Origin: Minisyncoccota bacterium | Lineage (GTDB): Bacteria; Patescibacteriota; Minisyncoccia; Phycocordibacterales; UBA6899 | Assembly: GCA_035583355.1 (NCBI GenBank) | Contig: DATEZQ010000008.1 | Coordinates: 36,610-100,609, forward strand | Length of the DNA stretch: 64,000 nucleotides | Reading direction: 5' to 3' | In this document: positions 1,310 through 48,378 of the stretch, piece after piece | How the letters are laid out: each line of letters opens with the position of its first letter | Numbering within the stretch: the stretch's first letter is position 1 | Program-made: the position numbers and the translations under genes | The notes under the pieces: model-generated | The model's input: only the letters and a program-made list of their open reading frames with translations | What the model was told of the DNA's origin: nothing | Databases searched by the model: none

Positions 1310-1436
1310 TAGACTTTAGATTTTTGATGCAGGTTGCCTTGCTGGAGGCATGCGAATTTTAGCGAGCCGTATGCGGTATACGGTGAGCGAATCGCATGCT
1401 GAAGCATGGCAAGATGCGCAAAAATATGAAGTCTAA
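1310..1436. repeat. MITE-like intergenic hairpin element, copy A of 4
   Basis: Terminal inverted repeats tagacttTAGatttttg / caaaaatATGaagtcta. Core gatgcaggttgccttgctggaggc … gctgaagcatggcaagatgcgc around the central hairpin ccgtatgcggtatacgg. Homologous to the elements at 9136, 38942 and 42114. Confidence 0.6.
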
Positions 1437-3272: not shown

Positions 3273-3397
3273 GGGAATGGGGTATGGGGAATAGGGTATG
3301 GGGAAAATTCATAAATAAAATTCGAGCACCTTCAGTGCTCAAATTTTGAATGTATTTTGAATTTTCCTATACCCTATTCCCTTTTTCCTATTTACCC
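3273..3397. repeat. G-rich heptad inverted-repeat element, copy E1
   Basis: gggaatggggtatggggaatagggtatgggg on the left; its inverse complement cctataccctattccctttttccta on the right. The central hairpin is gagcaccttcagtgctc. Lies between the lepA start and the murJ stop. Confidence 0.55.
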
Positions 3398-8950: not shown

Positions 8951-9135
8951 ATTAGGAAAAGTATAGCACTTTTTAATGCAAATGTAGGGGTTAAGGGAAT
9001 AAGGGGATAAGTAAATTCACAACCTAGATACAAAATTTTAGATAAATTTTACAGCAAACTCTCTATTATAAAACTCAAGAATTTGGATGAAGTTTGCCTT
9101 ATTGGAGACAAGAGAACCTCTAAATTACTATGTTT

Positions 9136-9266
9136 TTGGCGAAGGATTTATGGATGCAGTTTGCCCTGCTGGAGCGAGGTGGCGAAGGTAGACGTATTCG
9201 ATATACGGCGACTGAGCCACCGGAGCGAAGCAGGGCAAAATGCGCCGTAAAGACTCGCCAAAAATT
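9136..9266. repeat. MITE-like intergenic hairpin element, copy B
   Basis: Terminal inverted repeats tttttggcgaag / (ac)tcgccaaaaa. Core gatgcagtttgccctgctggagcg … gaagcagggcaaaatgcgcc. Central hairpin cgtattcgatatacg. Confidence 0.6.
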
Positions 9267-9440
9267 TAAAAGGGAGAGCTAGCGCTCTCCCTTCCCACAG
9301 TTTCCACGATGTATTGGAACATGACTTGTTCCTTCCTCCATACTACGCCCTTACTCGGTTCTCGCAATTGTGGATAACGCACAATCACACACTTTGCATC
9401 TACTGTCGAACAATAGTAAGTAGCCTCCACGACAAATTGA

Positions 9441-9839
9441 TTATGATGCTGGCGTGGTGGTCTTTTCAAGAACAGCACGCACGCGAAGCAAAACATCATC
9501 CATCGTCCATGCAGCCTTCACAAGAAAATCAAGTGCACCATTCTCCAGTGATTGTTGACTTGCACCCTCATCACTCAAGTTCGTCAATATAATCACGCGC
9601 GCAGTCTTTCCCCAATCATCAACGCGCATCTTTTTGAGCATCGTTAAACCATCCATTACTGGCATAATAATATCAAGCAAAATGAGATCGGGATGCTCAT
9701 GCAGAGCCAAATTGAGACCCTCCTCACCATCACGCGCCTCACGAACTTCGAAACCAGAAGAAGACAGCTTTCTTGCAAGCGCCTTTCGCAAAGGTGTTTC
9801 ATCTTCAACAATGAGCACTCGGGGTATTTGTTGTTCCAT
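9441..9839 (-). CDS. Stand-alone response regulator receiver (CheY-like, no output domain)
   Basis: PRVLIVEDE, then DLILLDIIMPVMDG, then T…K: a canonical REC domain of only ~133 aa. Start assigned to the internal Met (MEQQIPRV). Confidence 0.85.
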   Translation of the reverse strand: MEQQIPRVLIVEDETPLRKALARKLSSSGFEVREARDGEEGLNLALHEHPDLILLDIIMPVMDGLTMLKKMRVDDWGKTARVIILTNLSDEGASQQSLENGALDFLVKAAWTMDDVLLRVRAVLEKTTTPAS

Positions 9840-31261: not shown

Positions 31262-31545
31262 ACGTCGCGATGCGGCGCACCCTAAAGGGGCCCACACCGC
31301 CCTGCTCCTCGATTTCATTACATGAACGGTACACCTTTTGGATCTTTTATATCGAAGACTCACAAAAGTCCTCAAAAGGTCTTGCACTCTCGCTCCCATA
31401 AGCATGGGACCCATGAGCGAGAGCTCACCCACGGTTCTCGACGGAAACCCTTTCAGTCAAAAGGGGTTCCTGCTTTCCTACACGGGGAACCTCCCCGTTC
31501 CCCGACCCCCTCGACGTTCGAATCCCCGCGACTCCGCAATACAAA
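31262..31545 (+). repeat. Structured intergenic element R, copy 2
   Basis: Shares gcgcaccctaaaggggccc(a)cacc and tcct(a)cacggggaacctccccgttccccg(a)cccc(c)tcgac with copy 1. Several internal hairpins (ctctcgct…agcgagag; ccataagcatgg). Its 3' end runs into an inverted copy of the tRNA-Ser 3' half. Confidence 0.5.
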
Positions 31546-31600
31546 AAAAGAACAAGTACTCTTGCTCTTTTTTGTATTGCGGAGTCGCGGGGATTCGAAC
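31516..31600. repeat. Near-perfect ~40-bp-arm palindrome: inverted duplication of the tRNA-Ser 3' end plus ~20 nt of flank
   Basis: gttcgaatccccgcgactccgcaatacaaaaaaagaacaagtac | tcttgctcttttttgtattgcggagtcgcggggattcgaac. Confidence 0.7.
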
Positions 31601-31666
31601 CCCGGATGGCTGTTACACCATACTCACTTTCCAGGCGAGCGCACTAGACCACTATGCGACGACTCC
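31580..31666 (-). tRNA. tRNA-Ser (anticodon GGA), class II with a long variable arm
   Basis: Minus strand: GGAGTCG TC GCA TAGTGGTCTAG TGC G CTCGC CTGGAAA GTGAG [long variable arm ATGG…CCAT] CGGGG TTCGAAT CCCCG CGACTCC G. 7-bp acceptor stem, T-loop TTCGAAT, anticodon loop CU-GGA-AA. Confidence 0.85.
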
Positions 31667-35294: not shown

Positions 35295-36487
35295 CGGTAG
35301 TGCTCAGCCTTACTTGGAAGCCCCTCAACGAGTACAAAGAGGAGTGCCGCAGTAAGTGCAAGCACGGCACCATAGAAAAATGTTGTCTCTGGTCCCCAAT
35401 GCGTCCAAAGCAGTCCTCCAACAAGCGATGCGATAAATGCAGCGATACCGGTCAACATATAATAAAATCCATATGCGGTTCCGAGTTTTTCGGTTGGAAC
35501 GATATTTGCGATGTATGACTTTGACACTCCATCAGTAAGCGCCATATAGAATCCATATACAGGAAAGAGTATCCAGATATGTAGTGGCGATTGTATCAGT
35601 GCAAAGCCCGCGTACACAACAGCGAATATAACAAGTCCGAGCACATACACTTTCTTCTCACCAAGCTTGTCCGAAATAATTCCCGCTGGGAGCGAGAATG
35701 CAGAGTAGGTGATGTTATAGAGTACATATGCAAGCACCGTCACGATAAGCGAAAAGCCAAGCCCCTTCGCACGCAAGATCAAGAACGCATCAGAGCTATT
35801 TCCAATAGCAAAAATTGTTGAGATCACTACGAAGAAGAGAAACTTTCGAGGCAGAGCACTTATGCGGAACTTTTCTGCACTGGGCGCAATTACGGATCGC
35901 TGTTTTTCCTTTATGTACACTACAAGAAGTATGAGTGCAATAGAAGTTGGAATAAGCGCAAGGAAAAACATCAGGCGATAGTTATCCTGATAGAAGTGCA
36001 ACAACAGTATCGCCAGCAGCGGCCCAAGAATTGCTCCAAGCGTATCAGTCCCGCGGTGAAAGCCAAAGGCACGACCGAGCATCTTTGGCTCGACGTTTTC
36101 TGCAATGAGTGCATCACGCGCACTCGTGCGTATCCCCTTCCCAAGTCTACTAGTGAATTTCCCCGCAAGGACCAGGTGCCAAGTGTTTGCTATTCCATAG
36201 AACAGATTTGCAATCGTACCGAGCCCATACCCAACAACTACGAAAATCTTGCGCTTTCCGGTCATATCGGAAAGTCTTCCAGAAAATCCTTTTAACAAAC
36301 TTGCCGTACCCTCAGCAATGCCTTCGATGAGGCCTACAATAGAAGCAGGAGCACCGAGTACAGAAGTGAGGAATATCGGAACGATTGGATAAAGCATTTC
36401 CGAAGCAACATCATTGAAGAAGCTTACTACAGAGAGCACAAAAACGGGCGTAGTGACACCATATTTCCTTTCCAAATATTCACGCAT
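35291..36487 (-). CDS. MFS transporter
   Basis: Twelve predicted TM helices. The MFS motif region …GRLSDMTGKRKIFVVVGYGLG… between TM2 and TM3. Confidence 0.85.
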   Translation of the reverse strand: MREYLERKYGVTTPVFVLSVVSFFNDVASEMLYPIVPIFLTSVLGAPASIVGLIEGIAEGTASLLKGFSGRLSDMTGKRKIFVVVGYGLGTIANLFYGIANTWHLVLAGKFTSRLGKGIRTSARDALIAENVEPKMLGRAFGFHRGTDTLGAILGPLLAILLLHFYQDNYRLMFFLALIPTSIALILLVVYIKEKQRSVIAPSAEKFRISALPRKFLFFVVISTIFAIGNSSDAFLILRAKGLGFSLIVTVLAYVLYNITYSAFSLPAGIISDKLGEKKVYVLGLVIFAVVYAGFALIQSPLHIWILFPVYGFYMALTDGVSKSYIANIVPTEKLGTAYGFYYMLTGIAAFIASLVGGLLWTHWGPETTFFYGAVLALTAALLFVLVEGLPSKAEHYR

Positions 36488-36567
36488 ATGAATAAGTATA
36501 GCATCACAAATATATTGAAAAAATTACGGGAGTCATTGTATGACTCCCGTAAGGGTGTTTGGGGAAG

Positions 36568-37302
36568 CTACTTCTTCTTCCCCTTCTTGCCGTCGTCCGA
36601 CTTATTGCCGCCACCACCGCCACCGACCTTGCCAGGGAACTTGCTGGCGCGCTCGAGCTGGCGGGCGCGGCGCTCACCTTCGTGATGCTCGCGCGCCTTG
36701 GCCTTCTCGGCCTCGGACTGCGGGCCGGCGACCTTCTTGTAGACCGTGATGCTCTGCTTGAGGACAGGGTGGAACACGACCAGCTGACCGGGATTCTCCG
36801 ACTTCAGTTCGAAGCCGCAGTTGACCCAGTCGTCCGCGGTGAAGGTCACCTTCATCTTCTTCTCGATCTCCTCGCAGGAGCTCGAAATGATGGAGGGGGT
36901 CCTCGCACCGATGGCCTTGATGGCCGCGAGCACCTTCACCTTCTCGGCGAAGTACAGGTGGCCCTGGAAGCGAGCGGCGGCCCGCAGCATCGCGGACATC
37001 TTCGTCCCCCGCTTCTCGACGTTCTCGACCTTCAGCGCATTGCGCAGGAAGTCGGAGAAGTCGGAGAGGAGCGACACGGTGACCTCGGCCGGAGCCAGGC
37101 GCGTGATGTCCGCGATGAGCATGTCGGGCATGAAGCCGTTCTCGCGAACGACATCGGCCGCTTCGTTGAAGAGGCAGTTCTTGATCAGGCCCTTGGCCTT
37201 GTCGATGTTGCCCTTGAACTCGATCTCCGGCACGTAGGCACGGGGACGGATGACGGGCTTGTTGGCGGGAGTGGCGGCCTGAGCCGAGACCTGAGCGGTC
37301 AT
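36568..37302 (-). CDS. Hypothetical 244-aa protein encoded in a high-G+C (about 60-70%) island; C-terminal Gly/Lys-rich basic tail; probable horizontal acquisition
   Basis: Individual 60-nt lines count 63-73% G+C, against ~40% just upstream. The minus-frame protein has a natural composition, whereas the overlapping plus-frame and other-frame ORFs are Leu/Arg/Gly/Ala-biased antisense artefacts. The C-terminus is …KFPGKVGGGGGGNKSDDGKKGKKK. Confidence 0.55.
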   Translation of the reverse strand: MTAQVSAQAATPANKPVIRPRAYVPEIEFKGNIDKAKGLIKNCLFNEAADVVRENGFMPDMLIADITRLAPAEVTVSLLSDFSDFLRNALKVENVEKRGTKMSAMLRAAARFQGHLYFAEKVKVLAAIKAIGARTPSIISSSCEEIEKKMKVTFTADDWVNCGFELKSENPGQLVVFHPVLKQSITVYKKVAGPQSEAEKAKAREHHEGERRARQLERASKFPGKVGGGGGGNKSDDGKKGKKK

Positions 37303-37380
37303 GAGTGCACCTCAAATAAGAGGGTTTAGGGGAAAGTACAGTGCGACGACCGTTATCGTCGTGACATACAGTATACCACA

Positions 37381-37399
37381 TATTGACAAATTGTCAATA
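37381..37399. promoter_or_regulatory. 19-bp perfect palindrome (candidate operator) between divergent genes
   Basis: tattgacaa-a-ttgtcaata. Each half contains TTGACA. Confidence 0.4.
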
Positions 37400-37457
37400 C
37401 ATGTTAGTTTCATACCAGATACGGCTTGGTCGATACCAAGCGGAACAAGGAGCAGTC

Positions 37458-37874
37458 ATGAGCAACGTGCACAGCGAGAAACGCAACGATTGGCTATTTC
37501 CGGGCACACTGGGAGTCGTCGCGTGTTGCATCGCGTTCGCAATCGTCTTCGGTTTTATGAGCAAGAAGCCAAGGTCAACTGAGTCTGCGCAAAATCAGAT
37601 CTCCTCAAGAGGCCTCTCACTTCCCAACCAGAAACCTGTGCAAAACAATGCAGAAGTGAAGGCCGACAGTGACCCCCTCAATGGAGTTCCCACCGGCGAC
37701 TCCTATGTACTCATCATAGCGTCGGCGATGACAAGTTGCCCGGATACAGGGAAACTCTATCGAGACAATGCTCGACTTGAGCAGTTGGGTTATATCATGG
37801 ATCCTGATTCCCTCGATATAAAAGTCGGCTACGGAGCAAACGTCATCCATGCGGTCTACCACAAAAAGAAATGA
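37458..37874 (+). CDS. Small membrane-anchored hypothetical protein
   Basis: AGGAG RBS (aaggagcagtcATG), a single TM (LFPGTLGVVACCIAFAIVFGF), and a terminator at 37880-37915 shared with htpX. Confidence 0.5.
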   Translation: MSNVHSEKRNDWLFPGTLGVVACCIAFAIVFGFMSKKPRSTESAQNQISSRGLSLPNQKPVQNNAEVKADSDPLNGVPTGDSYVLIIASAMTSCPDTGKLYRDNARLEQLGYIMDPDSLDIKVGYGANVIHAVYHKKK

Positions 37875-37922
37875 GAGCAGTCAATTCAAAAGGGCATCCA
37901 AACGGATGCCCTTTTTCTATTA

Positions 37923-38834
37923 CTATTGTTTGACCGGCGCCGGCATTCCACGCAATGCTGCAATTCTCTCTTCCGTCGGCGGATGTGTTGCAAAAAGTTT
38001 GGCAACAAACTGCCCTGTTCCCTCAAATGGATTTGCGAAGTAGAGCGTTGCAGTCGCAGAGTTTGCGGTCGTCGACTCCGCATGCATGCCTGAGATTTTC
38101 TCAAGTGCGCTTGCGAGTCCCTCAGGATACCTCGTAAGGAGTGCACCTGATGCGTCCGCTAGGAATTCACGTTTACGTGAGATTGCGAGCTTCATCATTG
38201 TTGCAAAGATCGGCGCTAGCAGGGCAACTGCAATGCCTAGAATGAGCATCACTGGACTGCCTCCCTCATTATCATTACTACGACGGCGCCCACCCCAGAA
38301 CATCGAGCGAAGCATCCAATCAGAAAGAATCGCAATGAGCCCCGCGAGCACGACTGCGATAGTAGAGATGAGCGTGTCGCGATTGCCGATATGTGAAAGC
38401 TCATGCGCAATCACGCCTTCGAGTTCATTACGATTGAGGAGTCGTAGTAGTCCGGTATGCACAGCAATCGCCGCATGCTGCGGATCTCGCCCCGTCGCAA
38501 ATGCATTTGGCGAAGCATCTTCGACGATATAGATCTTTGGCATCGGAAGCCCTGAAGTGATACAAAGATTTTCAACAAGATTCCAAAGCTCCGTTGCCTC
38601 CTCTCTCTTTTCAACACGCTTTGCATGTACCATGCTGAGCACAATAGAGTCCGAGAACCAGAATGCCCCGAGGTTCATGACGAGCGCTACCACCACGGCA
38701 ATGATAAGCATCGATGGATTATTATTCACTTGCGCAAACACCCACCCTACTCCAATCACCAATCCAAAAAATCCGATAAGGAAAAACCATGTTTTTGAGA
38801 TATTCGATTCTTGCTGTGTATACAGTGTTGCCAT
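37923..38834 (-). CDS. htpX: Zinc metalloprotease HtpX (M48)
   Basis: HELSHIGNRD (HExxH) with flanking TM helices. Start set at MATLYTQQ. Confidence 0.85.
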   Translation of the reverse strand: MATLYTQQESNISKTWFFLIGFFGLVIGVGWVFAQVNNNPSMLIIAVVVALVMNLGAFWFSDSIVLSMVHAKRVEKREEATELWNLVENLCITSGLPMPKIYIVEDASPNAFATGRDPQHAAIAVHTGLLRLLNRNELEGVIAHELSHIGNRDTLISTIAVVLAGLIAILSDWMLRSMFWGGRRRSNDNEGGSPVMLILGIAVALLAPIFATMMKLAISRKREFLADASGALLTRYPEGLASALEKISGMHAESTTANSATATLYFANPFEGTGQFVAKLFATHPPTEERIAALRGMPAPVKQ

Positions 38835-38941
38835 CCTGCGATTATAGCAGAACTGGCCAAAGAATGAAGCAGCCTTCATTCCTCCTTCATGAACCAAAAT
38901 ATTGCATCTCTGTATTGTATTTCTGAATTTCACGCAACGAA

Positions 38942-39068
38942 AAACCGCTTATTCGGGATGAGATTGCCCTCGCTGGAGGCACGTGAACTCTAGTGAGCCG
39001 TATGGGTTATACGGTGAACGAGTCACGTGCTGAAGCGTGAGGGCAAGGTCGCCCGAATCAGCGGTTTA
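38942..39068. repeat. MITE-like intergenic hairpin element, copy C (between lemA and htpX)
   Basis: Terminal inverted repeats aaaccgcttattcggg / cccgaatcagcggttt. Core gatgagattgccctcgctggaggc … gctgaagcgtgagggcaaggtcgcc. Central hairpin ccgtatgggttatacgg. Confidence 0.6.
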
Positions 39069-39069
39069 T

Positions 39070-39630
39070 CTAGAATTTGACGGCTACGTTCTGCTGAGCA
39101 GCATCATTGTCGCCGAGGTCGAAGTACTCAAGAGCCTTAAATCCAAACATCCCTGCAATGATATTGCTTGGAAATGCCTGAATCGCATTTGTAAGATCGA
39201 GTACATTCGTATTATAGAAACGGCGTGCTGCCTGAATCTTGTTCTCTGTATCTGAAAGCTCCATCTGGAGGTTCAGGAAACTTTGATTTGCCTTAAGGTC
39301 AGGATATGCCTCCGAGAGTGCAAACACTGACTTGAGTGCGCCTGCAAGACCTGCCTCAGCAGCGCCCATGTGCATAGCATCATGAGGAGCAGCCATTGCC
39401 ATATTACGAGCCTCAATAACCTTTGTAAGTGTTCCCTCTTCATGCTTTGTATAGCCCTTTACGGTCTCTACAAGATTTGGGATAAGATCATAGCGGCGCT
39501 TGAGCTGTACTTCGATATCCTGCCAAGCAGCCTTAGCGCGATTCACGAGGCGCACAAGGCGGTTATAGGTAGACATCAAGAAAAGCCCTACAATTACAAC
39601 CACTGCGATAAGAATATATGTTGTTGGCAT
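39070..39630 (-). CDS. lemA: LemA family protein
   Basis: N-terminal TM, then YNRLVRLVNRAKAAWQDIEVQLKRRYDLIPNLVETVKGY, the LemA signature. Start set at MPTTYIL. Confidence 0.8.
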   Translation of the reverse strand: MPTTYILIAVVVIVGLFLMSTYNRLVRLVNRAKAAWQDIEVQLKRRYDLIPNLVETVKGYTKHEEGTLTKVIEARNMAMAAPHDAMHMGAAEAGLAGALKSVFALSEAYPDLKANQSFLNLQMELSDTENKIQAARRFYNTNVLDLTNAIQAFPSNIIAGMFGFKALEYFDLGDNDAAQQNVAVKF

Positions 39631-39709
39631 TTCGTAATTGTACCCTATTCGTGTGTAGAGGCAAGCAAGACCATGAAAAGATGATGAAGGCAAAATAAAA
39701 AGTGCGGCC

Positions 39710-40018
39710 TTAGCCGCACTCCACTTTTTCACGCGTCTCCGACTTGTTGATGTGTCGGAGATAGACCGACACATGAGGGTATTGCTTCACAAAATCACTG
39801 AGCACTTTCGCAGGATCAGGCTGCTCCCCTACAGACACACGATAGACATCTGCGCGATGCCCATTCAGCTGGGCGCGCAGACAACTCCCCTCTTTCCACT
39901 TCCCGAAGAGCTTTTTAACCACAGGAAGATGACGTTCGATACCCTTCTCATCGAGAAAGGTGATGTACCAGTATCCGCGCAGACCTGAGTAGATGCGGAG
40001 CGTTTTGTTGTGGGCCAT
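39710..40018 (-). CDS. Hypothetical protein (102 aa)
   Basis: Clean ORF. No family recognised. Confidence 0.4.
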   Translation of the reverse strand: MAHNKTLRIYSGLRGYWYITFLDEKGIERHLPVVKKLFGKWKEGSCLRAQLNGHRADVYRVSVGEQPDPAKVLSDFVKQYPHVSVYLRHINKSETREKVECG

Positions 40019-40196
40019 GAGGCACCTCCAAAGAATGAATTTCCTATCGTCATCTTAACACAATGACATCAAGAGCGACCCACCAAACAACACATTTCTA
40101 AACATAACCAAGGCTTCAGTATACCCTTTACATAAGCCATTTTTTATTGTAGTTTGCATGCAGAATAGCACCCTCACAACTACAACAGGAGCATGT

Positions 40197-42086
40197 ATGC
40201 CCAACCTTTTTTCTGACCACCGATTCCCCGGACTCAAGATCGCGATTGCGCAACTCCTCGTCATCCCTGGTGATGTGACCGGCAATACGGCAAACATCAT
40301 GACCGAGATCACGAAAGCACGCGCCTGCGGCGCCGATATCATCGTCTTCCCTGAACTCGCCGTCACCGGCTATTTGCTTGGAGACCGTTTCGAAGAAGAA
40401 GATTTTCTTCACGAAATCACACATGCCAACCAGATGATCGCTGCGGCCAGCGAAGATATCATCGTCATCTGGGGCACCGTCATCACCGACTTCGAAAAAC
40501 GCGGTGAGGATGGCCGTGCACGCAAGTACAATGCCGCATGTATCGCCAAAGATGGCTGCAGCGTCAGCAATGGTCTTCTCTTGGGATATGTACCAAAGAC
40601 AAACCTGCCCAAATACCGCATTTTTGATGACGCGCGACACTTCACTCCGTCGCAAACCCTCGCGCAAGAAGTCGATATCCCCCTTGCTTCACTTCTCTTC
40701 CCATTTCGCGTCAAACTCCCCTCTTCAGGTGAGACGATTGCTCTGGGACTGACAATCTGTGAAGACCTCTGGGAAGATGATTACGCAAACAAGCCTTCGC
40801 AGATCTACGCCGAAAATGCAGCCGACATCATCATCAACCTTTCGTGTTCACCGTGGACTGAGGGGAAGACCGGAGCGCGTGACCACATGCTCAAAAAGCG
40901 TGCATGCGAGTCCAAGCTCCCCATCCTCTATGTGAATGCCGTCGGTCTGCAAAACAACGTCAAGAACCTCATCTGGTTCGACGGAGGTTCGACCGCAGTG
41001 CACAGCGATGGCGAAATCATCTGGCGCATGCCTCAACATGAAGCTAGTCTCGGCTATCTTCACGGTATGATCCACGAGGAACCCAAGGAACCCCTTTCGG
41101 GTGTGGCGGAATGTCATGCGCCCCTCATCGCGGCCATGAAACAGTTCTACGCGCCTTTTAAAAAGGTAGTCGTCGGACTTTCCGGTGGCATCGACTCAGC
41201 AGTGCAACTCGCCCTGCTCGTCGAAGCCATCGGTGCCCCTAAGGTACTCGCCATCAACATGCCGACGAAATTCAACTCGAACACGACCCAGGATCTTGCA
41301 AAAAAATGTGCAAGCAACCTTGGTGTCGAATACATCGTGATTCCCATTCAGCCGATTGTTGATGTCATCAAGGAAGCGCTCGCGAAAGCTGGCTTTTCGA
41401 ATCTTCCGTCGCTCGTTGAGGAAAATATCCAAGCACGCACACGAAGTGCGGATATCCTCGCAGCTGTGGCGCAAACGCTTGGCGGTGTCTTCACCTGCAA
41501 CGGCAACAAAACCGAAATGGCACTCAACTACTTCACGCTTTACGGCGATGGAGCTGGGGCGTCTGCATTCCTCGCAGATTTCTGGAAGGGTGAAATCTAT
41601 GACCTCGCGAACTACTTGAACGAACAGGCGGGGCGAGAACTCGTCTCCATGGGTATCATCGATGTCATTCCCTCTGCGGAACTTTCTGCCGATCAAAATG
41701 TCGATGAAGGAAAAGGAGATCCCATCTTCTATCCTTACCATGACAATCTACTCCGCGCGTTCACCGAACTGCGCTGGACTCCGGCGACCGTGATGCAGCA
41801 CCTCATCGAGGGTAACCTCGAAGAGAAGCTCAACTGCGCAGGAGGTACACTCAGGAAATATTTCAAGACCCGAAAGCAGTTCGTCGATAATCTTGAGTGG
41901 GCCTGGGAGCGATATAATATCGAATGGAAGCGTGGACAAACAGCCCCCTGCTTCTTAGTCTCGCGTCGCGCTTTCGGTTCCGACCGTCGCAGCACGATTG
42001 CACCATCGCATACGTCGCTCGAGTACGAGCGTCTCGTCTATCTCTACCTGCATACCGAAGATGGCAACTGCCGCATCGGCATCTAG
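40197..42086 (+). CDS. nadE: Glutamine-dependent NAD+ synthetase (nitrilase domain + NAD synthetase domain)
   Basis: N-terminal CN-hydrolase (…IVFPELAVTGYLLGDRFEEE…). C-terminal NAD synthetase P-loop VVVGLSGGIDSAV. Confidence 0.9.
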   Translation: MPNLFSDHRFPGLKIAIAQLLVIPGDVTGNTANIMTEITKARACGADIIVFPELAVTGYLLGDRFEEEDFLHEITHANQMIAAASEDIIVIWGTVITDFEKRGEDGRARKYNAACIAKDGCSVSNGLLLGYVPKTNLPKYRIFDDARHFTPSQTLAQEVDIPLASLLFPFRVKLPSSGETIALGLTICEDLWEDDYANKPSQIYAENAADIIINLSCSPWTEGKTGARDHMLKKRACESKLPILYVNAVGLQNNVKNLIWFDGGSTAVHSDGEIIWRMPQHEASLGYLHGMIHEEPKEPLSGVAECHAPLIAAMKQFYAPFKKVVVGLSGGIDSAVQLALLVEAIGAPKVLAINMPTKFNSNTTQDLAKKCASNLGVEYIVIPIQPIVDVIKEALAKAGFSNLPSLVEENIQARTRSADILAAVAQTLGGVFTCNGNKTEMALNYFTLYGDGAGASAFLADFWKGEIYDLANYLNEQAGRELVSMGIIDVIPSAELSADQNVDEGKGDPIFYPYHDNLLRAFTELRWTPATVMQHLIEGNLEEKLNCAGGTLRKYFKTRKQFVDNLEWAWERYNIEWKRGQTAPCFLVSRRAFGSDRRSTIAPSHTSLEYERLVYLYLHTEDGNCRIGI

Positions 42087-42113
42087 CATTCCCCGACAAC
42101 CACCAAATGGGAG

Positions 42114-42235
42114 ACTGCAGAATTGAGATGAGATTGTGCCTGCTGGAGCTTTGCGAATTCTAAGGAAATGGGCTCTTGCCCATTGACTGAATCGCAAAGT
42201 GAAGCAGGTGCAAGATCGCTCAATTATGCAGTCAC
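42114..42235. repeat. MITE-like intergenic hairpin element, copy D (between nadE and pncB)
   Basis: Terminal inverted repeats ctgcagaattgag / ctcaattatgcag. Core gatgagattgtgcctgctggagc … gtgaagcaggtgcaagatcgc. Central hairpin aatgggctcttgcccatt. Confidence 0.6.
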
Positions 42236-42247
42236 TATGGAGGAAAC

Positions 42248-43591
42248 ATGGATTTTGCAAAACGCGCTCACGACCATTCGTTTCATTACGACTGGATCAT
42301 CCGTTCGCTTCTAGACATCGACTTCTACAAACTCTTGATGCTCCAGTGCATCTGGTTATTCTTCCCCACGACGGTCATCCGCTTTTCCCTCATGAACCGC
42401 ACCAAGCGCGTCCGCCTCGCCAACATCATCGACGAGGCACAACTTCGTGCGCAGCTCGACCACGTGCGCTCACTTTCCTTCCGGGAAAATGAACTCGTCT
42501 GGCTTGCGGGCAATAAGTTCTATGGGAAGCGCGATATTTTCCGTCCCATATTCATCGGGTGGCTACGCGACCTGCGCCTCCCCGATTACCAACTCAGTCG
42601 CACTAAAGATGGTCAGTGGGAGCTTGTCTTCGAAGGAACGTGGGTCGAGGTCACCCTCTGGGAGATCTACGCTATTGTCATCGTGAACACTCTGCGTAAT
42701 CGTGCAGGGCTCGCCATGATGAACAAGAGCGAGCTCGACATTTTCTATGCGCTCGGCAAAGCCCGCGCATGGGAGAAGGTCAAGATCTTCCGAGAGTTCG
42801 AGAACCTCAACCTCACTGACTTCGGCACCCGTCGCCGCCACGAATTCTTGTGGCAGAAGTGGGTCGTCGAACTCTTTGCAGAAATGCTTGGACCGAAGAA
42901 CTTTTCCGGCACTTCCAATGCACTCCTGGCGATGGAGCTTGGGCTTGAAGCCAAAGGCACAAATGCCCACGAGCTCCCTATGGTGCTCGCGGCGCTTGCC
43001 TATGGTGAGCATGTCCTCGAGAGCACTGTACTGCGTGGAGAGAAAGTACGCGAATCGCAGTATGACGTCCTTCACTACTGGCAGAAGACCTATGGTGACG
43101 TGCTCACCGTCTTCTTGCCCGATACGTTCGGAACTACGCAATTCCTCAAGAATGCGCCCGAATGGCTCGCTAGCTGGAGGGGTGGCCGACCTGATTCCAA
43201 GGATCCCTTCCTTGCAACGGAAGAATTCGCCGCTTGGTGGCAATTCCATAAGCAGGATCCAAGAGAAAAGCTTTCTCTCCCCTGCGACGGGCTTGATGCT
43301 CCAGTCATTGCCGACCTTCACCGCAAGTACTACGGTCACATCGGTATCGGCTATGGCCTCGGCACATTCGGCACCAATGACTTCCGTGGTTGTCATCCGC
43401 GAGGTCTTACCGACCTCGATCCCATTTCGCTGGTGTGCAAAGTTTCGCACGTCTTCGTGAATGGGATCTGGATACCCGCCGTCAAACTCTCGGACAACTA
43501 CGAGAAGGCCACAGGACCGAAGGATATGGTTGCCGAGTACCGTGCCATCTTTGGCACCGAAGGTGTCGCGAATGCTCCTGTTGTCGTGTAA
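42248..43591 (+). CDS. pncB: Nicotinate phosphoribosyltransferase
   Basis: DIDFYKLLM near the N-terminus, and LTDFGTRRRHEF, the NAPRTase signature. Confidence 0.9.
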   Translation: MDFAKRAHDHSFHYDWIIRSLLDIDFYKLLMLQCIWLFFPTTVIRFSLMNRTKRVRLANIIDEAQLRAQLDHVRSLSFRENELVWLAGNKFYGKRDIFRPIFIGWLRDLRLPDYQLSRTKDGQWELVFEGTWVEVTLWEIYAIVIVNTLRNRAGLAMMNKSELDIFYALGKARAWEKVKIFREFENLNLTDFGTRRRHEFLWQKWVVELFAEMLGPKNFSGTSNALLAMELGLEAKGTNAHELPMVLAALAYGEHVLESTVLRGEKVRESQYDVLHYWQKTYGDVLTVFLPDTFGTTQFLKNAPEWLASWRGGRPDSKDPFLATEEFAAWWQFHKQDPREKLSLPCDGLDAPVIADLHRKYYGHIGIGYGLGTFGTNDFRGCHPRGLTDLDPISLVCKVSHVFVNGIWIPAVKLSDNYEKATGPKDMVAEYRAIFGTEGVANAPVVV

Positions 43592-43604
43592 TTAGTTCAA
43601 TGCA

Positions 43605-43668
43605 AAATACCGCCCCTTACGAGGGGCGTTTTTCTACATAAAAAAGCAGGCCGAAGCCTGCTTGATTT
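43605..43668. terminator. Tandem back-to-back terminators for pncB (+) and the convergent nicotinamidase-like gene (-)
   Basis: aaataccgccccttacgaggggcgttttt, then aaaaaagcaggccgaagcctgcttgattt. Confidence 0.6.
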
Positions 43669-44713
43669 AGTAGATCCACGAACTCATCGGATCCGTCGAA
43701 CGCACGATGTGCATGCCTGCAGCAGCGAAACGCTTGAGAGCTTCTTCGCCCTTCTCGGTGAAGTCGGGTCCATCGGGGACCACAACCGAAGACATGGTGT
43801 CACTGAGTATGTACACATTACCTGCAAGCCGTGCATCACGTCGGCGAATCTCCGCAAGGAGATCATCGAGGGATGACTGTACGCAGTGCGAGAGCGCCTG
43901 ACCTGCAACGAGTATCTTCTGGTAGGAAAGGATGTGATCCATGAAGCGCTGATTGCGCGCAGCAATGGGTTGCTTGCCATTCCAATGCTCAGTCACCTCC
44001 GGAGAGAAGACCGAGTAGCTTTCGGTAAGCGTATCCTGACCTTTCAGTTCAGGCCGATTCTGCGACACGCGTGCATACGCATGGAACATGCGCGCTTCAT
44101 CAACGACACCGACGGGATTGTGCCCCTCGGAACCAAGGATGCAGTGCTCCGGCCAGAGATAGAGCATGTACTTGCCCGAATGGCCACCCGAGAGGACTTG
44201 CTTCACGTAGAAGCTCACCTGGCGCACCAGTTCGATATATGACATACCAAGCATGGCCGCAATATCCATGGAAGGAAGTGCGCGACCGAAGGTCTTGCCT
44301 CCACGCTGGATGATGAGATCGCCATCGATCATGTCGTGCGGTAAGAGCGGCACAAAGTTTTCATCTCGCCAGAACATCGGAGAGAAGATTTGGAACGGCT
44401 CATGTGTGTCGAGCGTTGGACTGATCGTAGTGATATGCGGTAGTTCGCGATAGATGAATTCCGAAAGACGACGCGAGTCATCAATCGCACCTTGCCCACT
44501 GCGACCAGCAACAAAGAGCGCCCCTTCAGGAAAACAGAAGTCGCGCTGTACATCGATGGGCATCAGAACCACCCTCGTTGTGTCGCTCGCTGCCGGGGCA
44601 ATGTGATTGTCACGGGCGTAATCGAACGCGGCTTCGACCACCTTCCGGAGATTCGGCCGGTAGGACCAGAGTGCAGCGTGCTCGGGGTTATAGAACTTGG
44701 GAAATTCGCGCAT
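43667..44713 (-). CDS. pncA: Isochorismatase-family hydrolase, long-form nicotinamidase-like
   Basis: MPIDVQRDF (Asp), a His-rich metal site (WPEHCILGSEGH), and the nucleophile motif LVAGQALSHCVQSS (VxGxAxxxCV). Genomic context is the NAD salvage genes. Confidence 0.6.
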   Translation of the reverse strand: MREFPKFYNPEHAALWSYRPNLRKVVEAAFDYARDNHIAPAASDTTRVVLMPIDVQRDFCFPEGALFVAGRSGQGAIDDSRRLSEFIYRELPHITTISPTLDTHEPFQIFSPMFWRDENFVPLLPHDMIDGDLIIQRGGKTFGRALPSMDIAAMLGMSYIELVRQVSFYVKQVLSGGHSGKYMLYLWPEHCILGSEGHNPVGVVDEARMFHAYARVSQNRPELKGQDTLTESYSVFSPEVTEHWNGKQPIAARNQRFMDHILSYQKILVAGQALSHCVQSSLDDLLAEIRRRDARLAGNVYILSDTMSSVVVPDGPDFTEKGEEALKRFAAAGMHIVRSTDPMSSWIY

Positions 44714-44816
44714 AAGACGCTCCTTCTTATAAATGGGCTCTAGCAGGAAACTACCTCATGACGAGCAGATGTCAAATTGGAAAGTATCGCAATGCAAAAG
44801 GTTCTTTATCTTGACT

Positions 44817-44835
44817 TAGTGTATCATATACACTA
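44817..44835. promoter_or_regulatory. 19-bp perfect palindrome overlapping a TTGACT -35-like box, between the divergent pncA-like and nadM genes (candidate NrtR operator)
   Basis: ttgact TAGTGTAT-cat-ATACACTA. Confidence 0.35.
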
Positions 44836-44932
44836 TTCTAGCGCAAGACAACAGAAAATCTAGACGAGTCCTAACCTTTATGGTAGAACTTGTGCAGACA
44901 TTCAATTGCTCTTCTTTTAAAAAGGAGTATTC

Positions 44933-45892
44933 ATGAGCCTTCGGGATACATTTCCCCTCGCTGTTGTAATCGGACGGTTCCAAGTCCCCCGACTGCACAA
45001 TGGACACATCCAGCTCGTCGCTGCCGCACAGGCACACGCTCAGTGTGTTTCGATGAAGACGGACATGCTCATCGTAATCGGCGTCAGCCCCGCCCTTCCG
45101 AACAAAGCAAATCCGCTCTCGTTCGAGGCACGACGTGCCATGATCTCGGCCCAGTTCGAGGGATTTCCTATGGAACACATCCTCCCCTTAAAGGATCGAG
45201 GCAACAATGATCTATGGTCGCGTGATCTCGATGCGCTCATCCAGAAACACGCACACGGCCGACCGGTCACGATCTATGGATCGCGCGATAGCATCGTCTC
45301 TACTGGGTCCTACAAGGGGAAATATCCGACACACTACGTCGAAGCGGAGGGCCTCTACTCCGGAACAGAAGAGCGCGCGCAGCTTGCGAATAATGATTTC
45401 GTGACGCTGCACCTCGCGATGGATGAACACTTCCGACGCGGATTCATATCGGCGATCATGACGCGCGACCCTGTTTGCAACAGCACCGTCGATGCAGCGA
45501 TCATCTCGCGTGACAAGCGCTTCGTCGTGCTCGGACAGAAGGAGCGCGACCATGGGAAGTTCCGTTTCCCTGGAGGATTTTTCGACAAAGAGCTCGATTT
45601 CGACGATGAAGCTGCTGCGATTCGCGAAGCGCGCGAAGAATGTGGCGACCTCGTCTTCGGAGAAGCAGTTCCCCTAGGCTCTGCAGTAATCGACGACTGG
45701 CGCTATCGAGGGACCGGCGACTACATCAAGACGCAGCTCTATCTGCTCCCTCACGAGAGCGGTGAGCTGAAGACCCTCGACAAAGATGATCTTTCGGGAG
45801 TCTCGTGGCATCCGATCGACCAACTCCTCAACCTGATTATTCCGGACCACGAGCTGCTCGCAAAGAAGCTGCTCAACTACCTCAATAAATGA
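44933..45892 (+). CDS. nadM: Bifunctional NadM-type NMN/NaMN adenylyltransferase + Nudix hydrolase
   Basis: N-terminal AVVIGRFQVPRLHNGH (the archaeal-type GRFQPFHxGH motif). C-terminal Nudix box GGFFDKELDFDDEAAAIREAREECG. Confidence 0.8.
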   Translation: MSLRDTFPLAVVIGRFQVPRLHNGHIQLVAAAQAHAQCVSMKTDMLIVIGVSPALPNKANPLSFEARRAMISAQFEGFPMEHILPLKDRGNNDLWSRDLDALIQKHAHGRPVTIYGSRDSIVSTGSYKGKYPTHYVEAEGLYSGTEERAQLANNDFVTLHLAMDEHFRRGFISAIMTRDPVCNSTVDAAIISRDKRFVVLGQKERDHGKFRFPGGFFDKELDFDDEAAAIREAREECGDLVFGEAVPLGSAVIDDWRYRGTGDYIKTQLYLLPHESGELKTLDKDDLSGVSWHPIDQLLNLIIPDHELLAKKLLNYLNK

Positions 45893-45896
45893 AATC

Positions 45897-45926
45897 CAAA
45901 AGGACAGCCAACGGCTGTCCTTTTTT
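45897..45926. terminator. Bidirectional rho-independent terminator
   Basis: aaaaggacagccaacggctgtcctttttt. Confidence 0.6.
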
Positions 45927-46580
45927 CTATAAGAAGAATTGTACCTTCTTCGCCTTCTTGAACACCTTTGCAGGTCGACCCTTCTGGAGCTTACGCTCTT
46001 TATTGGTCGGCTTGATCGGAAGTTCTTCGATAAACTTGTAGAAGTTTCGTTTATCTACTTCTTTTCCAAGCACGGAATCAAATGCATTCTTCAATTCACT
46101 GATTACGAATTCATCTTTGACGAAATTGAGTAAGATACTCGAGATGTACGCATGCTCACGCAAAAACTTTATTGCATCCGCAATGATGTGATCATGATCG
46201 TAAGCAAGCTTCAGCTTCTTGTTAAGCGGATACCATTCCAACCCGTAATCTTTATCAGAATTTTCGATAATACCGATATGTGCAAGTGAAACGACACGAC
46301 CACGGGGATCACGCTCAACTGCATCATAAAAGCCTAAACTAAATACATGAGGAATCACATCGATCGATGATTTTTCCTGTGCAATGCGTTTTACCGCCTC
46401 GAGTGCAACTTCTTTTGGATGAAGTACACCGCCCAAGAGTCCAGGAACATTCACAAAATAGGGCGGCCGATGCACCAGCTGCGTCGCGTATTCTATGGTT
46501 CCGTTTTTCATGCGCAATAAGACGATGTCAGTGGCGACAATTGCGAAACGCAATGTGTCCTTTGAGTCTAAATTTGTCAT
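45927..46580 (-). CDS. nrtR: NrtR-like regulator (Nudix-like domain + C-terminal winged helix)
   Basis: N-terminal Nudix-like fold (…FAIVATDIVLLR…VLHPKEVALEAVKRIAQEKS…) with a degenerate Nudix box. The C-terminal ~90 aa are wHTH-like. Adjacent to nadM/pncB/nadE, as is typical for NrtR. Confidence 0.65.
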   Translation of the reverse strand: MTNLDSKDTLRFAIVATDIVLLRMKNGTIEYATQLVHRPPYFVNVPGLLGGVLHPKEVALEAVKRIAQEKSSIDVIPHVFSLGFYDAVERDPRGRVVSLAHIGIIENSDKDYGLEWYPLNKKLKLAYDHDHIIADAIKFLREHAYISSILLNFVKDEFVISELKNAFDSVLGKEVDKRNFYKFIEELPIKPTNKERKLQKGRPAKVFKKAKKVQFFL

Positions 46581-46716
46581 GGTTCATTTATTGTTCATAC
46601 ACCAAATGGTGCGTACTACTATTATACAGGCTAGTGTTTTTCTCACAATAAGCGTGTAAATTCGACAGAAAGTCAAAAATTTCATGTACATATAAAAAGC
46701 GCCGAAGCGCTTTTTA

Positions 46717-48378
46717 TTAATAACCCATATCTTCAGCGGAACCAACAGACTTCTTCTCCTCGGGTGCATCGACAATGGCAACCTCAGTAGTAAGCAAGAT
46801 GCCGGCAGCAGAGATTGCGCGCTCGAGCCCAACCCGTGCAACCTTCACTGGATCGACGATTCCCGCCTTTAACATATCAGGAACCATCATATCATTTGCT
46901 GCATCATAGCCTGCATTACCCTTACCTTCCATAATCTCCTTGATGATTACTGCGGCATCATCGCGCCCAGTATTTTCAACTATCTGTGTGATTGGCTCCT
47001 TGAGCGCATTCACGACGATCTGATATCCAACCTCATACTCTGCATTCGTCATCGCCGCGCCTGTATGCTTTTCGTTTTTACGCGCTGCGAGATTCTTTGC
47101 GAGCTCCTTTGAGAGACGGACGAGTGTTGAACCACCGCCAGGGATGATTCCCTCAGCAATCGCAGCTTTCGTTGCCTTCACTGCATCCTCGATCTTGAGC
47201 TTCAAGTACTTCATCTCGGTCTCAGTAGCAGCACCGACACGGAGAATTGCTACTCCACCGGAGAGCTTCGCAAGTCGTCCCTCAAGTTTTTCCTTATCAT
47301 ACTTCGAGTCTGCATTCGTAATTTGCGCACGGATCTGCGCAACACGCTTCGCGAGTGCCTGCTTATTCCCCTTCCCGTCGACGAGAATGGTTTTGTCCTT
47401 CGTGGCAATTACTCGACCTGCGTGTCCAAGTACATCAAGTGTTGCATCTGCAAATGTCGTACCTACATCATCTGAGATGACGGTAGCCCCCGTAAGGGTT
47501 GCGATATCATCAAGCATGTCTTTCTTGTGCACGCCGTAGCCAGGAGCCTTAATGGCAAGCACATTAAATGCACCTCTAATGCGATTCACGACAAGGGTCG
47601 TAAGCGCATCACCTTCGATATCGTCAGCGATAAGTACAAGATCCTTTTTCCCTGTCTGTGCAACTTTCTCTAGAAGTGGAAGAATTTCCTGAATCGAAGT
47701 GACGCGTTTATCGGTAAGTACTATAGAAGCATCCTTAAAGACCGCCTCCATGCGTACGGAATCAGTTACCATATAAGGAGAAACGTAACCCTTGTCGAAC
47801 TCAAGCCCCTCAGTAATCTCAGAAGTTATACCAAATGACTGTGACTCTTCGACAGTGACTACACCATCATTCCCTACTTGCTTAATGGTCTCTGCAATCT
47901 TCTTACCAAACTCCGCACTCTCCACTGAAATCGTAGCAACCTGCTCAATCTCAGCGTCAGTCTTCACCGGCTTTGCAATCTTTGTGAGATAAAGCTCGGC
48001 ATCACGAAGTGCTGCCTCCATGCCACGACGTACCCCCATCGGATTCGCACCCATGGCGACACGCTTCATGCCTTCACGCACAAGTGCCTGCATTAAAACC
48101 ACGGAAGTGGTTGTACCATCACCGGCGATCTCGTCAGTCTTGCTTGCGACCTCCTTGGTCATTTCTGCACCGAGGTTCTCGAACTTATTTGTGAGCGTGA
48201 TCTCTTTTGCAATAGAGACGCCATCGTTGGTGATTGTTGGTGCACCATACCCCTTATCGAGGACGACATTGCGCCCACGTGGACCGATGGTGATCTTCAC
48301 CGCATCAGCGACGATATCGACACCACGGCTGAGCGCCTTGCGTGCAGCCTCTCCATTTAAAATTTGTTTTGTTGCCAT
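46717..48378 (-). CDS. groL: Chaperonin GroEL
   Basis: MATKQILNGEAARKALSRGVDIVADAVKITIGPRGRNVVL… with the C-terminal Gly/Met-rich tail. Confidence 0.97.
   Translation of the reverse strand: MATKQILNGEAARKALSRGVDIVADAVKITIGPRGRNVVLDKGYGAPTITNDGVSIAKEITLTNKFENLGAEMTKEVASKTDEIAGDGTTTSVVLMQALVREGMKRVAMGANPMGVRRGMEAALRDAELYLTKIAKPVKTDAEIEQVATISVESAEFGKKIAETIKQVGNDGVVTVEESQSFGITSEITEGLEFDKGYVSPYMVTDSVRMEAVFKDASIVLTDKRVTSIQEILPLLEKVAQTGKKDLVLIADDIEGDALTTLVVNRIRGAFNVLAIKAPGYGVHKKDMLDDIATLTGATVISDDVGTTFADATLDVLGHAGRVIATKDKTILVDGKGNKQALAKRVAQIRAQITNADSKYDKEKLEGRLAKLSGGVAILRVGAATETEMKYLKLKIEDAVKATKAAIAEGIIPGGGSTLVRLSKELAKNLAARKNEKHTGAAMTNAEYEVGYQIVVNALKEPITQIVENTGRDDAAVIIKEIMEGKGNAGYDAANDMMVPDMLKAGIVDPVKVARVGLERAISAAGILLTTEVAIVDAPEEKKSVGSAEDMGY

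Follow-up and report, generated by a model that had tools for sequence, protein, structure and literature searches.

Dispersed long-hairpin repeats of about 125 nucleotides, constrained as a single strand, in Candidatus Paceibacterota bacteria

CPR/Patescibacteria have very small genomes, which are commonly said to contain few repeats and little mobile DNA. The stretch of 64,000 nucleotides analyzed here (64 kb; hereafter, the window) belongs to a MAG of Candidatus Paceibacterota (CPR/Patescibacteria), a tiny-genome groundwater bacterium, and it contains four similar hairpins of about 125 nt dispersed among its genes. The assignment follows from LepA and PncB of the window, which match proteins of a "Candidatus Paceibacterota bacterium" MAG with full identity. 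The locus raises the question of what kind of element these hairpins are, which molecule folds, and by what means the copies have spread. An earlier note on this DNA had read them as the signature of a miniature inverted-repeat element (MITE) or of a REP-like structured repeat that is, or formerly was, mobile in this genome. A literature search returned no description of the element, nor of any interspersed repeat family in CPR/Patescibacteria. The copies are best described as a new, ERIC/REPIN-like family of interspersed long-hairpin repeats; calling it a dispersed hairpin repeat or a "REP-like structured repeat", as the earlier note did, is fair.

The four copies lie on the + strand at positions 1311–1435 (c1), 9137–9261 (c2), 38942–39068 (c3), and 42112–42235 (c4). 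They are 124–127 nt long and all are intergenic, and the core and central mini-hairpins that the earlier note had reported were found in each of them. The core GCTGGAG-N40–70-GAAGC occurs four times in the window, always on the + strand, versus an expectation of 0.28, and none of 100 shuffled sequences reached four occurrences. A covariance model (R1) was built from the four window copies, and its scan of the 64 kb returned exactly four copies (95–132 bits, E = 1e-20 to 1e-29), all of them full elements: c1 at 131.5 bits (E = 1.3e-29), c2 at 94.9 bits (E = 1.1e-20), c3 at 125.5 bits, and c4 at 118.6 bits. The copies' own reverse strands scored 20.6–40 bits, and the best other match in the 64 kb, at 26 bits, was an unrelated tRNA-associated palindrome. 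Alignment of the copies revealed similarity over the whole length of about 125 nt, not over a core of about 12 nt. As the earlier note had proposed, each copy forms one long imperfect hairpin: all four were predicted to fold into a single hairpin (−64 to −76 kcal/mol, z-scores of −8.8 to −11.1), with energies of −64.5 kcal/mol for c1 (z = −8.8), −71.4 kcal/mol for c2 (z = −10.5), −75.7 kcal/mol for c3 (z = −9.8), and −67.8 kcal/mol for c4 (z = −11.1). The apical hairpin of c1 is of one type (type A, CCGUAU..AUACGG) and that of c4 of another (type B, AUGGGC..GCCCAU), and c2, the most divergent full element, has its inner stem in a different register. Directly upstream of c2 we also found a 5′ half-copy that the earlier note had missed (9070–9123, + strand). 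It was recognized by reading and aligning the sequence, and the model gave a weak hit there (9071–9136, 12.5 bits). This remnant of an older copy retains the 5′ arm of the outer stem and the GAUG, UUGGAG, and GAA motifs, its 3′ half is absent, and it aligns with the 5′ halves of the copies at L121:5556–5680 and L151:1064–1188 in two related contigs. Another contig of the same genome (L157) adds 8.5 kb around rpoB/rpoC and contains no copy, which gives a density of four copies per approximately 72 kb; the family takes up about 0.7% of the examined sequence.

The positions of the copies relative to the neighboring genes followed a pattern. The window has a GC content of approximately 47% and, over the full length of the + strand, a negative GC skew; the − strand carries most of the genes. 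The c1 copy lies between two convergent genes: its 5′ end directly follows the T-run of the terminator (1280–1310) of a GNAT acetyltransferase gene (+ strand), and 1 nt separates its 3′ end from the stop codon of lepA (1437–1439, − strand). The c3 copy lies between the stop codon of lemA (39070–39072, − strand), from which it is 1 nt away, and the start of htpX, and is antisense to both of these − strand genes. The c4 copy is in the sense orientation between the stop codon of nadE (42084–42086) and the ribosome-binding site and start (42248) of pncB, both on the + strand. These are the flanks that the earlier note had given (convergent genes, here GNAT and lepA, as well as lemA–htpX and nadE–pncB); the fourth site is between a response-regulator gene and a DUF192 gene, both on the − strand, where the 3′ end of c2 adjoins the terminator (9268–9295, − strand) that follows the response-regulator gene. 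When the related contigs were included, the 3′ end of the element was found 0–2 nt from an opposite-strand stop codon at six independent loci (lepA, lemA, htpX in L151, and the neighboring genes in L059, L148, and L142), and in L059, L148, and L151, the last bases of the element form the stop codon itself. At most loci, the sense strand (the + strand of the window copies) is antisense to both neighboring genes, c4 alone being in sense inside a gene pair. The sense strand is C-rich in all seven contigs (skew −0.05 to −0.12) and is opposite to most genes, although replication strand and gene direction are confounded in these contigs as far as the orientation of the element is concerned. The placement at convergent stop codons suggests that the element either has a function at gene ends or prefers them as targets, and from position we infer that such a function might lie in transcript processing, stability, or insulation against convergent transcription. 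Scans for promoter and terminator consensus sequences at the four sites identified nothing at the elements themselves. On the antisense strand, the lemA-site copies and those in L148 and L121 are followed by 5–7 U residues, and c1, c2, and c4 are not.

The pairing within the hairpin is preserved by compensatory change. When RNAalifold was run de novo on a MAFFT alignment of the four window copies, it recovered 48 base pairs, of which 29 showed compensatory changes. In an alignment of the 12 full copies from seven contigs (the window and its relatives), all confirmed with the model, 96.9% of 575 pair cells were standard pairs, versus 77% with shuffled partners and 33–39% when the registers were slid by 1–3 columns; this alignment was fitted to the model and so leans towards the structure, but the independent MAFFT/RNAalifold result from the four copies agrees with it. 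Both sides had changed in 32 of the 48 pairs, and none of 500 shuffles reached any of the observed measures. The sequences themselves are far less stable over time. At four-fold degenerate sites of htpX, lemA, nadE, and pncB, the window, L151, and L152 are only 44–60% identical, and at both the c3 and c4 sites the hairpins are intact in all three, with scores of 112–122 bits for the orthologous copies; the sequence of the c3 copies is no better conserved than the surrounding genes.

The constraint acts on the sense strand alone, as a single strand. Across the 12 copies, 45 wobble cells were G·U or U·G and four were A·C or C·A, whereas constraint on a duplex or cruciform would treat the two strands alike. 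The composition of the region does not explain this excess, since the local bias of the + strand, which is C- and A-rich, would yield A·C rather than G·U. All 12 copies have the U19·G112 pair, and nine of them have G57·U75. Unpaired positions are better conserved than paired ones, with A18, G35, G36, A37, A52, A56, G76, A77, G93, and A94 invariant, and the apical loop is free to vary. These invariant unpaired bases make up two tandem G·A motifs and bulged A residues, so that the fold keeps a bulged A followed by the invariant U·G in GAUG, a GGA/GA loop (CUGGAG / GAAGC), a UA bulge, and, immediately beneath the apical hairpin, a tandem G·A. With RNA energy parameters, the sense strand is 13–19 kcal/mol more stable than the antisense strand, and with DNA parameters, the gap is only 2–6 kcal/mol. 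The compensatory changes, strand-specific wobbles, and invariant internal G·A loops had all escaped the earlier note. Taken together, they suggest that selection has acted on a single strand, most likely of RNA, and not on double-stranded ends bound by a transposase.

The family is not confined to the window, and further copies were present in six other organisms or contigs. A groundwater relative with a 96% identical LepA (L121) carries a true copy, and two contigs with 78–80% identical PncB (L151 and L152) carry copies at both the c3 and c4 sites. Genome contigs were also searched with the pattern GATG-N4-T-N6-GCTGGAG..GAA..GAAGC, which matched at least 120 loci and is too loose for estimating the species distribution; among the matches listed, one was a true copy, in the MAG "bacterium SKS1.bin43" (L059), which otherwise has nothing in common with the window at the DNA or protein level. 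A stricter pattern applied to metagenome contigs matched 27 loci, two of which were true copies (L142 and L148), the other 25 being unconfirmed by the covariance model. These 25 loci (of L124–L150) mostly have a span of 77 nt, and many carry Ga03022xx–Ga03023xx (JGI) identifiers; they may share another conserved sequence that fits the pattern by chance. Contigs L151 and L158 each end in a partial copy. The 22 kb surrounding lepA in L122 (LepA 90% identical), the 20–22 kb of the lepA region of L156 (LepA 77% identical), and 20 kb of L155 (PncB 62% identical) yielded no copy. Beyond these relatives, a pattern scan of IMG/VR viral contigs gave one chance match and no copy, blastn against E. coli genomes, plasmids, and phages returned nothing, and c3 used as a blastn query (word size 11) against 5,426 complete E. 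coli genomes produced no match at E ≤ 0.01. Scanning the window against Rfam 15 at the gathering threshold identified only tRNA, and a scan of the c1 region at E ≤ 10 yielded only noise. The family is best explained as restricted to a small clade within Candidatus Paceibacterota (CPR). Its distribution is patchy.

Comparison of orthologous sites showed that copies have been gained, lost, partly replaced, and recombined between genomes and sites, which is clear evidence of turnover. At the c2 site, the window and L121 carry an element and L122 does not. The L121 copy at this site is orthologous not to c2 but to the half-remnant beside it (approximately 90% identical over the first 45 nt), and c2 is a different family member that occupies the exact place of the older copy's missing 3′ half, up to the same terminator flank. 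At an unrelated locus in L148, a 5′ half-remnant is likewise followed by a full copy. The c3 copy has orthologs in L151, L152, and L158. The window, L151, and L152 have a copy at the c4 site. L158, L159, and L160 have none there, and in them nadE and pncB are separated by only 30 nt, approximately 17 of which resemble the 3′ end of the element. An extra copy in L151 adjoins the htpX stop codon, at a place where the window and L152 have an ordinary terminator, and two contigs end inside copies. The copies are also mosaic, in that the similarity matrices of the outer, inner, and apical modules are incongruent. In L059, for example, the outer part is 86% identical to that of c3, and the inner stem and apex are 97% and 100% identical, respectively, to those of L148. 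Between the c4 copies of L151 and the window, the outer part is 92% identical, the inner part 51%, and the apical part 37%. Two apical types, CCGUAN..N′UACGG and AUGGGC..GCCCAU, have been swapped between orthologous sites. The c4 copies of the window and L152 lie within a tract of approximately 280 nt that is 91–98% identical, which looks from its sequence like a recent exchange.

Several known kinds of element and RNA were compared with the family and set aside. The GGA/GA loop does not correspond to a box C/D or K-turn RNA, because its bulge is of 1 nt and not 3 nt, and the second G·A set has no bulge, the UA bulge being 2 bp away. The RUGAUGA and CUGA boxes of a box C/D RNA are also lacking, the base before GAUG being variable and CUGA occurring in two copies only. 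The copies are dispersed rather than tandem and their arms pair with each other, unlike units of a TIGR stem–loop array. Integron attC sites were rejected because there are no R″/R′ cores (RYYYAAC / GTTRRRY), no arrays, and no integrase in the window, and the copies lie among housekeeping genes. For a single-strand origin of the ssoA type, a TAGCGA match to CS-6 occurs in some copies only and lies outside the loop. The d(GCGAAGC) mini-hairpin is found in only a few copies.

Of the two readings that the earlier note had offered together, the REP-like one is a fair description, and the classical MITE is not supported. On the latter, the repeat would be an internally deleted derivative of an IS with a DDE transposase, mobilized as double-stranded DNA through its terminal inverted repeats, and its short, non-coding, multi-copy, intergenic form with terminal inverted repeats agrees with this. 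However, no target-site duplication was found in the 12 copies (eight sets of flanks were compared together and four were read from alignments), nor was there any recurring direct repeat of any length. The termini, which the earlier note had described as each copy's own inverted repeats, do pair in every copy, but their sequence is only partly conserved and amounts to a loose consensus, A(A/G)AC..GU(C/U)U. Pairing is conserved over the whole length, which recognition of double-stranded ends would not need, and the wobble pairs are strand-asymmetric. No IS was found in the window, and scanning its approximately 49 proteins against NCBIfam and Pfam revealed no transposase, integrase, or reverse transcriptase. 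We consider a classical MITE very unlikely. A micro-ORF is the least probable reading, and we give it hardly any credence. On this reading, AUG, CUG-GAG, GAA, and UAG/UAA would encode a peptide of 11 residues (M-x4-L-E-x2-E-L/F) and the hairpin would control its translation. An in-frame ATG with a stop 33 nt later is indeed present in nine of the 12 copies (e.g., 1327–1362, 38958–38993, and 42128–42163), and two more read on to a conserved UGA, at 19 codons. The copies nevertheless have no Shine–Dalgarno sequence, unlike the neighboring genes, the AUG is base-paired, and the frame is not kept in c2. At the conserved "codons" there is no synonymous variation, and at the variable ones the changes are non-conservative and track those of the bases with which they pair. 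The 11-codon frame is probably a by-product of conservation at the RNA level.

The best explanation overall, to which we assign about an even chance of being correct, is a non-autonomous interspersed palindromic repeat of approximately 125 nt, with a hairpin of approximately 48 bp that folds as sense-strand RNA and is possibly a gene-end module. If transcription of the sense strand is assumed, the folded molecule is most likely RNA. This is favored by the conserved U·G and G·U pairs, by a strand asymmetry that is large as RNA and small as DNA, by the G·A and bulged-A motifs, which are typical of protein-binding RNA, and by the folded strand not being the one expected to be exposed as ssDNA during replication or transcription of the neighboring genes. 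The sense-strand RNA would fold and present its invariant G·A, bulged-A, and U·G features as a surface for recognition by a protein, and at gene ends the hairpin might serve as a processing, stability, or insulation element for transcripts running towards the neighboring gene, roles resembling those proposed for ERIC, Correia, and REP elements. Spread would take place at the DNA level, through a trans-acting activity, recombination between copies, or both, and not by cut-and-paste with target-site duplication; the family may be renewed when copies insert beside or within older ones and when copies recombine with one another. Against an RNA function, individual copies are dispensable, as some orthologous sites are empty, and a selfish element would explain the patchy distribution no less well than a host function would. 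The main rival is a REPIN-like mobile DNA, in which the hairpin is a ssDNA substrate that would be cut and pasted by a Y1/HUH transposase encoded elsewhere (a RAYT or an IS200/IS605-type TnpA), effects at the RNA level would be incidental, and the fold and invariant mismatches would be kept because only foldable copies propagate. We regard this as possible, although unlikely on balance. Strand-specific wobbles and invariant mismatches are also expected of a ssDNA hairpin recognized by such a transposase, which argues against reading them in terms of RNA only, and the RNA and REPIN-like readings are compatible rather than mutually exclusive. The strand-specific constraint, the missing target-site duplication, the narrow and patchy distribution with presence/absence polymorphism, and the single orientation of all copies relative to GC skew agree with the REPIN-like reading. 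The compensatory changes, half-copy remnants, and clustering beside older copies match descriptions of REPINs and REP singlets (PMC3116915), and the empty c4 site in L158, which keeps approximately 17 nt like the 3′ end of the element, recalls REPIN excision products (PMC3116915). For the missing target-site duplication, the half-remnants, this 3′ trace, and the patchy distribution, the REPIN-like reading accounts as well as the RNA one does. Conversely, the folded strand, which is C-rich in seven contigs, would be the leading-strand template by the usual logic of skew and gene orientation. IS200/IS605-type elements use the lagging-strand template (the IS608 rule), so the folded strand here is opposite to the one that they use. 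The strand asymmetry under DNA parameters is also small (2–6 kcal/mol), and the most conserved bases are in internal loops and not in terminal, REP-like 16-mers. The lack of a Y1 transposase among the approximately 49 window proteins is a weak argument, since RAYTs are typically single-copy; no RAYT was found in the approximately 72 kb of the window and L157.

Two further readings give the RNA a more independent part, and we hold both to be improbable. In one, which we think rather unlikely, a structured RNA with a dedicated protein partner would form a multi-copy RNP module of a Paceibacteria clade, whose genes would propagate at gene ends, homing into copies already present there or recombining with them. 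If this were true, the repeat would be a self-propagating functional RNA gene, not transposon debris, and the first repeat-borne RNA family described in CPR. In the other, which we find slightly more doubtful still, the repeat would be a multi-copy gene for a trans-acting structured small RNA or RNP scaffold: each RNA of approximately 125 nt would be transcribed independently and bind a CPR-specific protein through the G·A motifs, its genomic position being secondary. Very strong covariation, invariant unpaired nucleotides, and a conserved U·G pair, as in protein-binding RNAs, speak for this trans-acting RNA, as does the retention of orthologous copies although neutral sites are near saturation. 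Yet the copies lack a conserved promoter, no terminator follows the hairpin, copies have been lost without replacement at some sites, and close relatives lack the element in 20-kb samples. The apical loop and stems vary freely and thus leave no conserved single-stranded region for pairing with a target.

The family shares features with several known hairpin repeats, and differs from each of them. REPINs are REP doublets that form hairpins and are mobilized by RAYT transposases in Pseudomonas and E. coli, and their excision leaves a few 3′ bases (PMC3116915). Like them, the CPR elements are extragenic long-hairpin repeats of the order of 100 nt with compensatory changes, half-unit remnants, clustering, and no target-site duplication, and the empty c4 site in L158 resembles their excision trace. 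However, REPINs have two highly conserved inverted terminal 16-mers and a variable spacer, whereas here the termini and outermost helix vary, the invariant bases are internal, the folded strand is C-rich, and the host is a CPR bacterium. ERIC sequences (or IRUs) are imperfect palindromes of 127 bp in enterobacteria, intergenic and often co-transcribed in either orientation, which differ in presence and absence between relatives and for which an RNA-level role has been proposed; to our knowledge, no transposase or target-site duplication is known for them. Our elements are similar in length (124–127 nt), in forming a single long imperfect hairpin in intergenic regions, in occurring in sense (c4) or antisense (c3), and in their presence or absence between relatives. 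They differ in having no sequence similarity to ERIC (blastn, 5,426 E. coli genomes), in the phylum of the host, and in a much stronger covariation combined with mosaic exchange of modules. Correia/NEMIS elements of Neisseria, RUP/BOX of Streptococcus, and RPE of Rickettsia are approximately 100–150 bp long with inverted ends, lie at gene ends, can supply stop codons, and give transcripts whose hairpins are processed by RNases; their terminal inverted repeats are conserved in sequence and usually flanked by a target-site duplication (TA for Correia and RUP). The CPR family resembles these in size, inverted ends, placement at gene ends, and supply of stop codons, but it lacks both conserved-sequence ends and target-site duplication, and its pairing extends over the whole length and is constrained on one strand. 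A covarying hairpin with invariant tandem G·A motifs also recalls protein-binding RNAs (K-turn, box C/D, and TIGR), and CPR bacteria do carry box C/D-like guide RNAs in the form of TIGR-Tas (PMC12045711). In TIGR arrays, however, the units are tandem and the spacers do not covary, whereas here the copies are dispersed, the segments between the motifs pair, and no Tas or Nop gene is nearby.

The covariation in this family is unusually clean for so few sequences, which makes it readily eligible as a new family of the Rfam type. It could also serve to test whether hairpin repeats of the ERIC/REPIN type are kept by RNA function or by ssDNA transposition, with the placement at convergent stop codons and the swapping of modules as concrete, testable features. 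Such repeats also break MAG assemblies, as the two contigs that end inside copies illustrate.

Some further observations concern the surroundings of the copies. In this genome, the GNAT acetyltransferase gene and c1 (775–1436) lie between lepA and rpoB, whereas in L121 and L122 (96% and 90% LepA identity), the next large gene after lepA is rpoB; c1 therefore marks one edge of a gene insertion. The NAD-salvage block at approximately 36000–48000 (nadE, pncB, NUDIX, and NrtR), which contains c3 and c4, has a GC content of 0.49–0.53 versus 0.45–0.47 elsewhere, and the nearest PncB matches are a few at 62–80% identity and otherwise alphaproteobacterial at approximately 58%. The raised GC and this match pattern suggest that the block is a horizontally acquired island. 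On the − strand at approximately 9290–9400, between the stop codon of the response-regulator gene (9441) and the terminator at 9268–9295, 110–130 nt are conserved in L121 and L122. This region has predicted stems and its own terminator, is overlapped by an ORF (9266..9499), and has no Rfam match; it is a candidate small RNA or small ORF. At the tRNA gene at 31580–31666 (− strand), an inverted repeat of the last ~24 nt (TTCGAATCCCCGCGACTCCG...) lies just downstream, across a terminator-like center, so that the end of the tRNA and its inverted repeat (31511–31604) make up a near-perfect palindrome of approximately 94 nt, possibly a scar left by an integrative element or else a 3′-processing or terminator hairpin. 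The hairpin at 3286–3383, scored at 20 bits by the model, was judged an unrelated palindrome and not a family member. The palindrome at 3273–3385 upstream of lepA, also unrelated to the hairpin family, is composed of runs of the heptamer GGGNATN (GGGAATGGGGTATGGGGAATAGGGTATGGGG ... CCTATACCCTATTCCC), and similar runs of this heptamer occur at approximately 8975–9000, upstream of the DUF192 gene.
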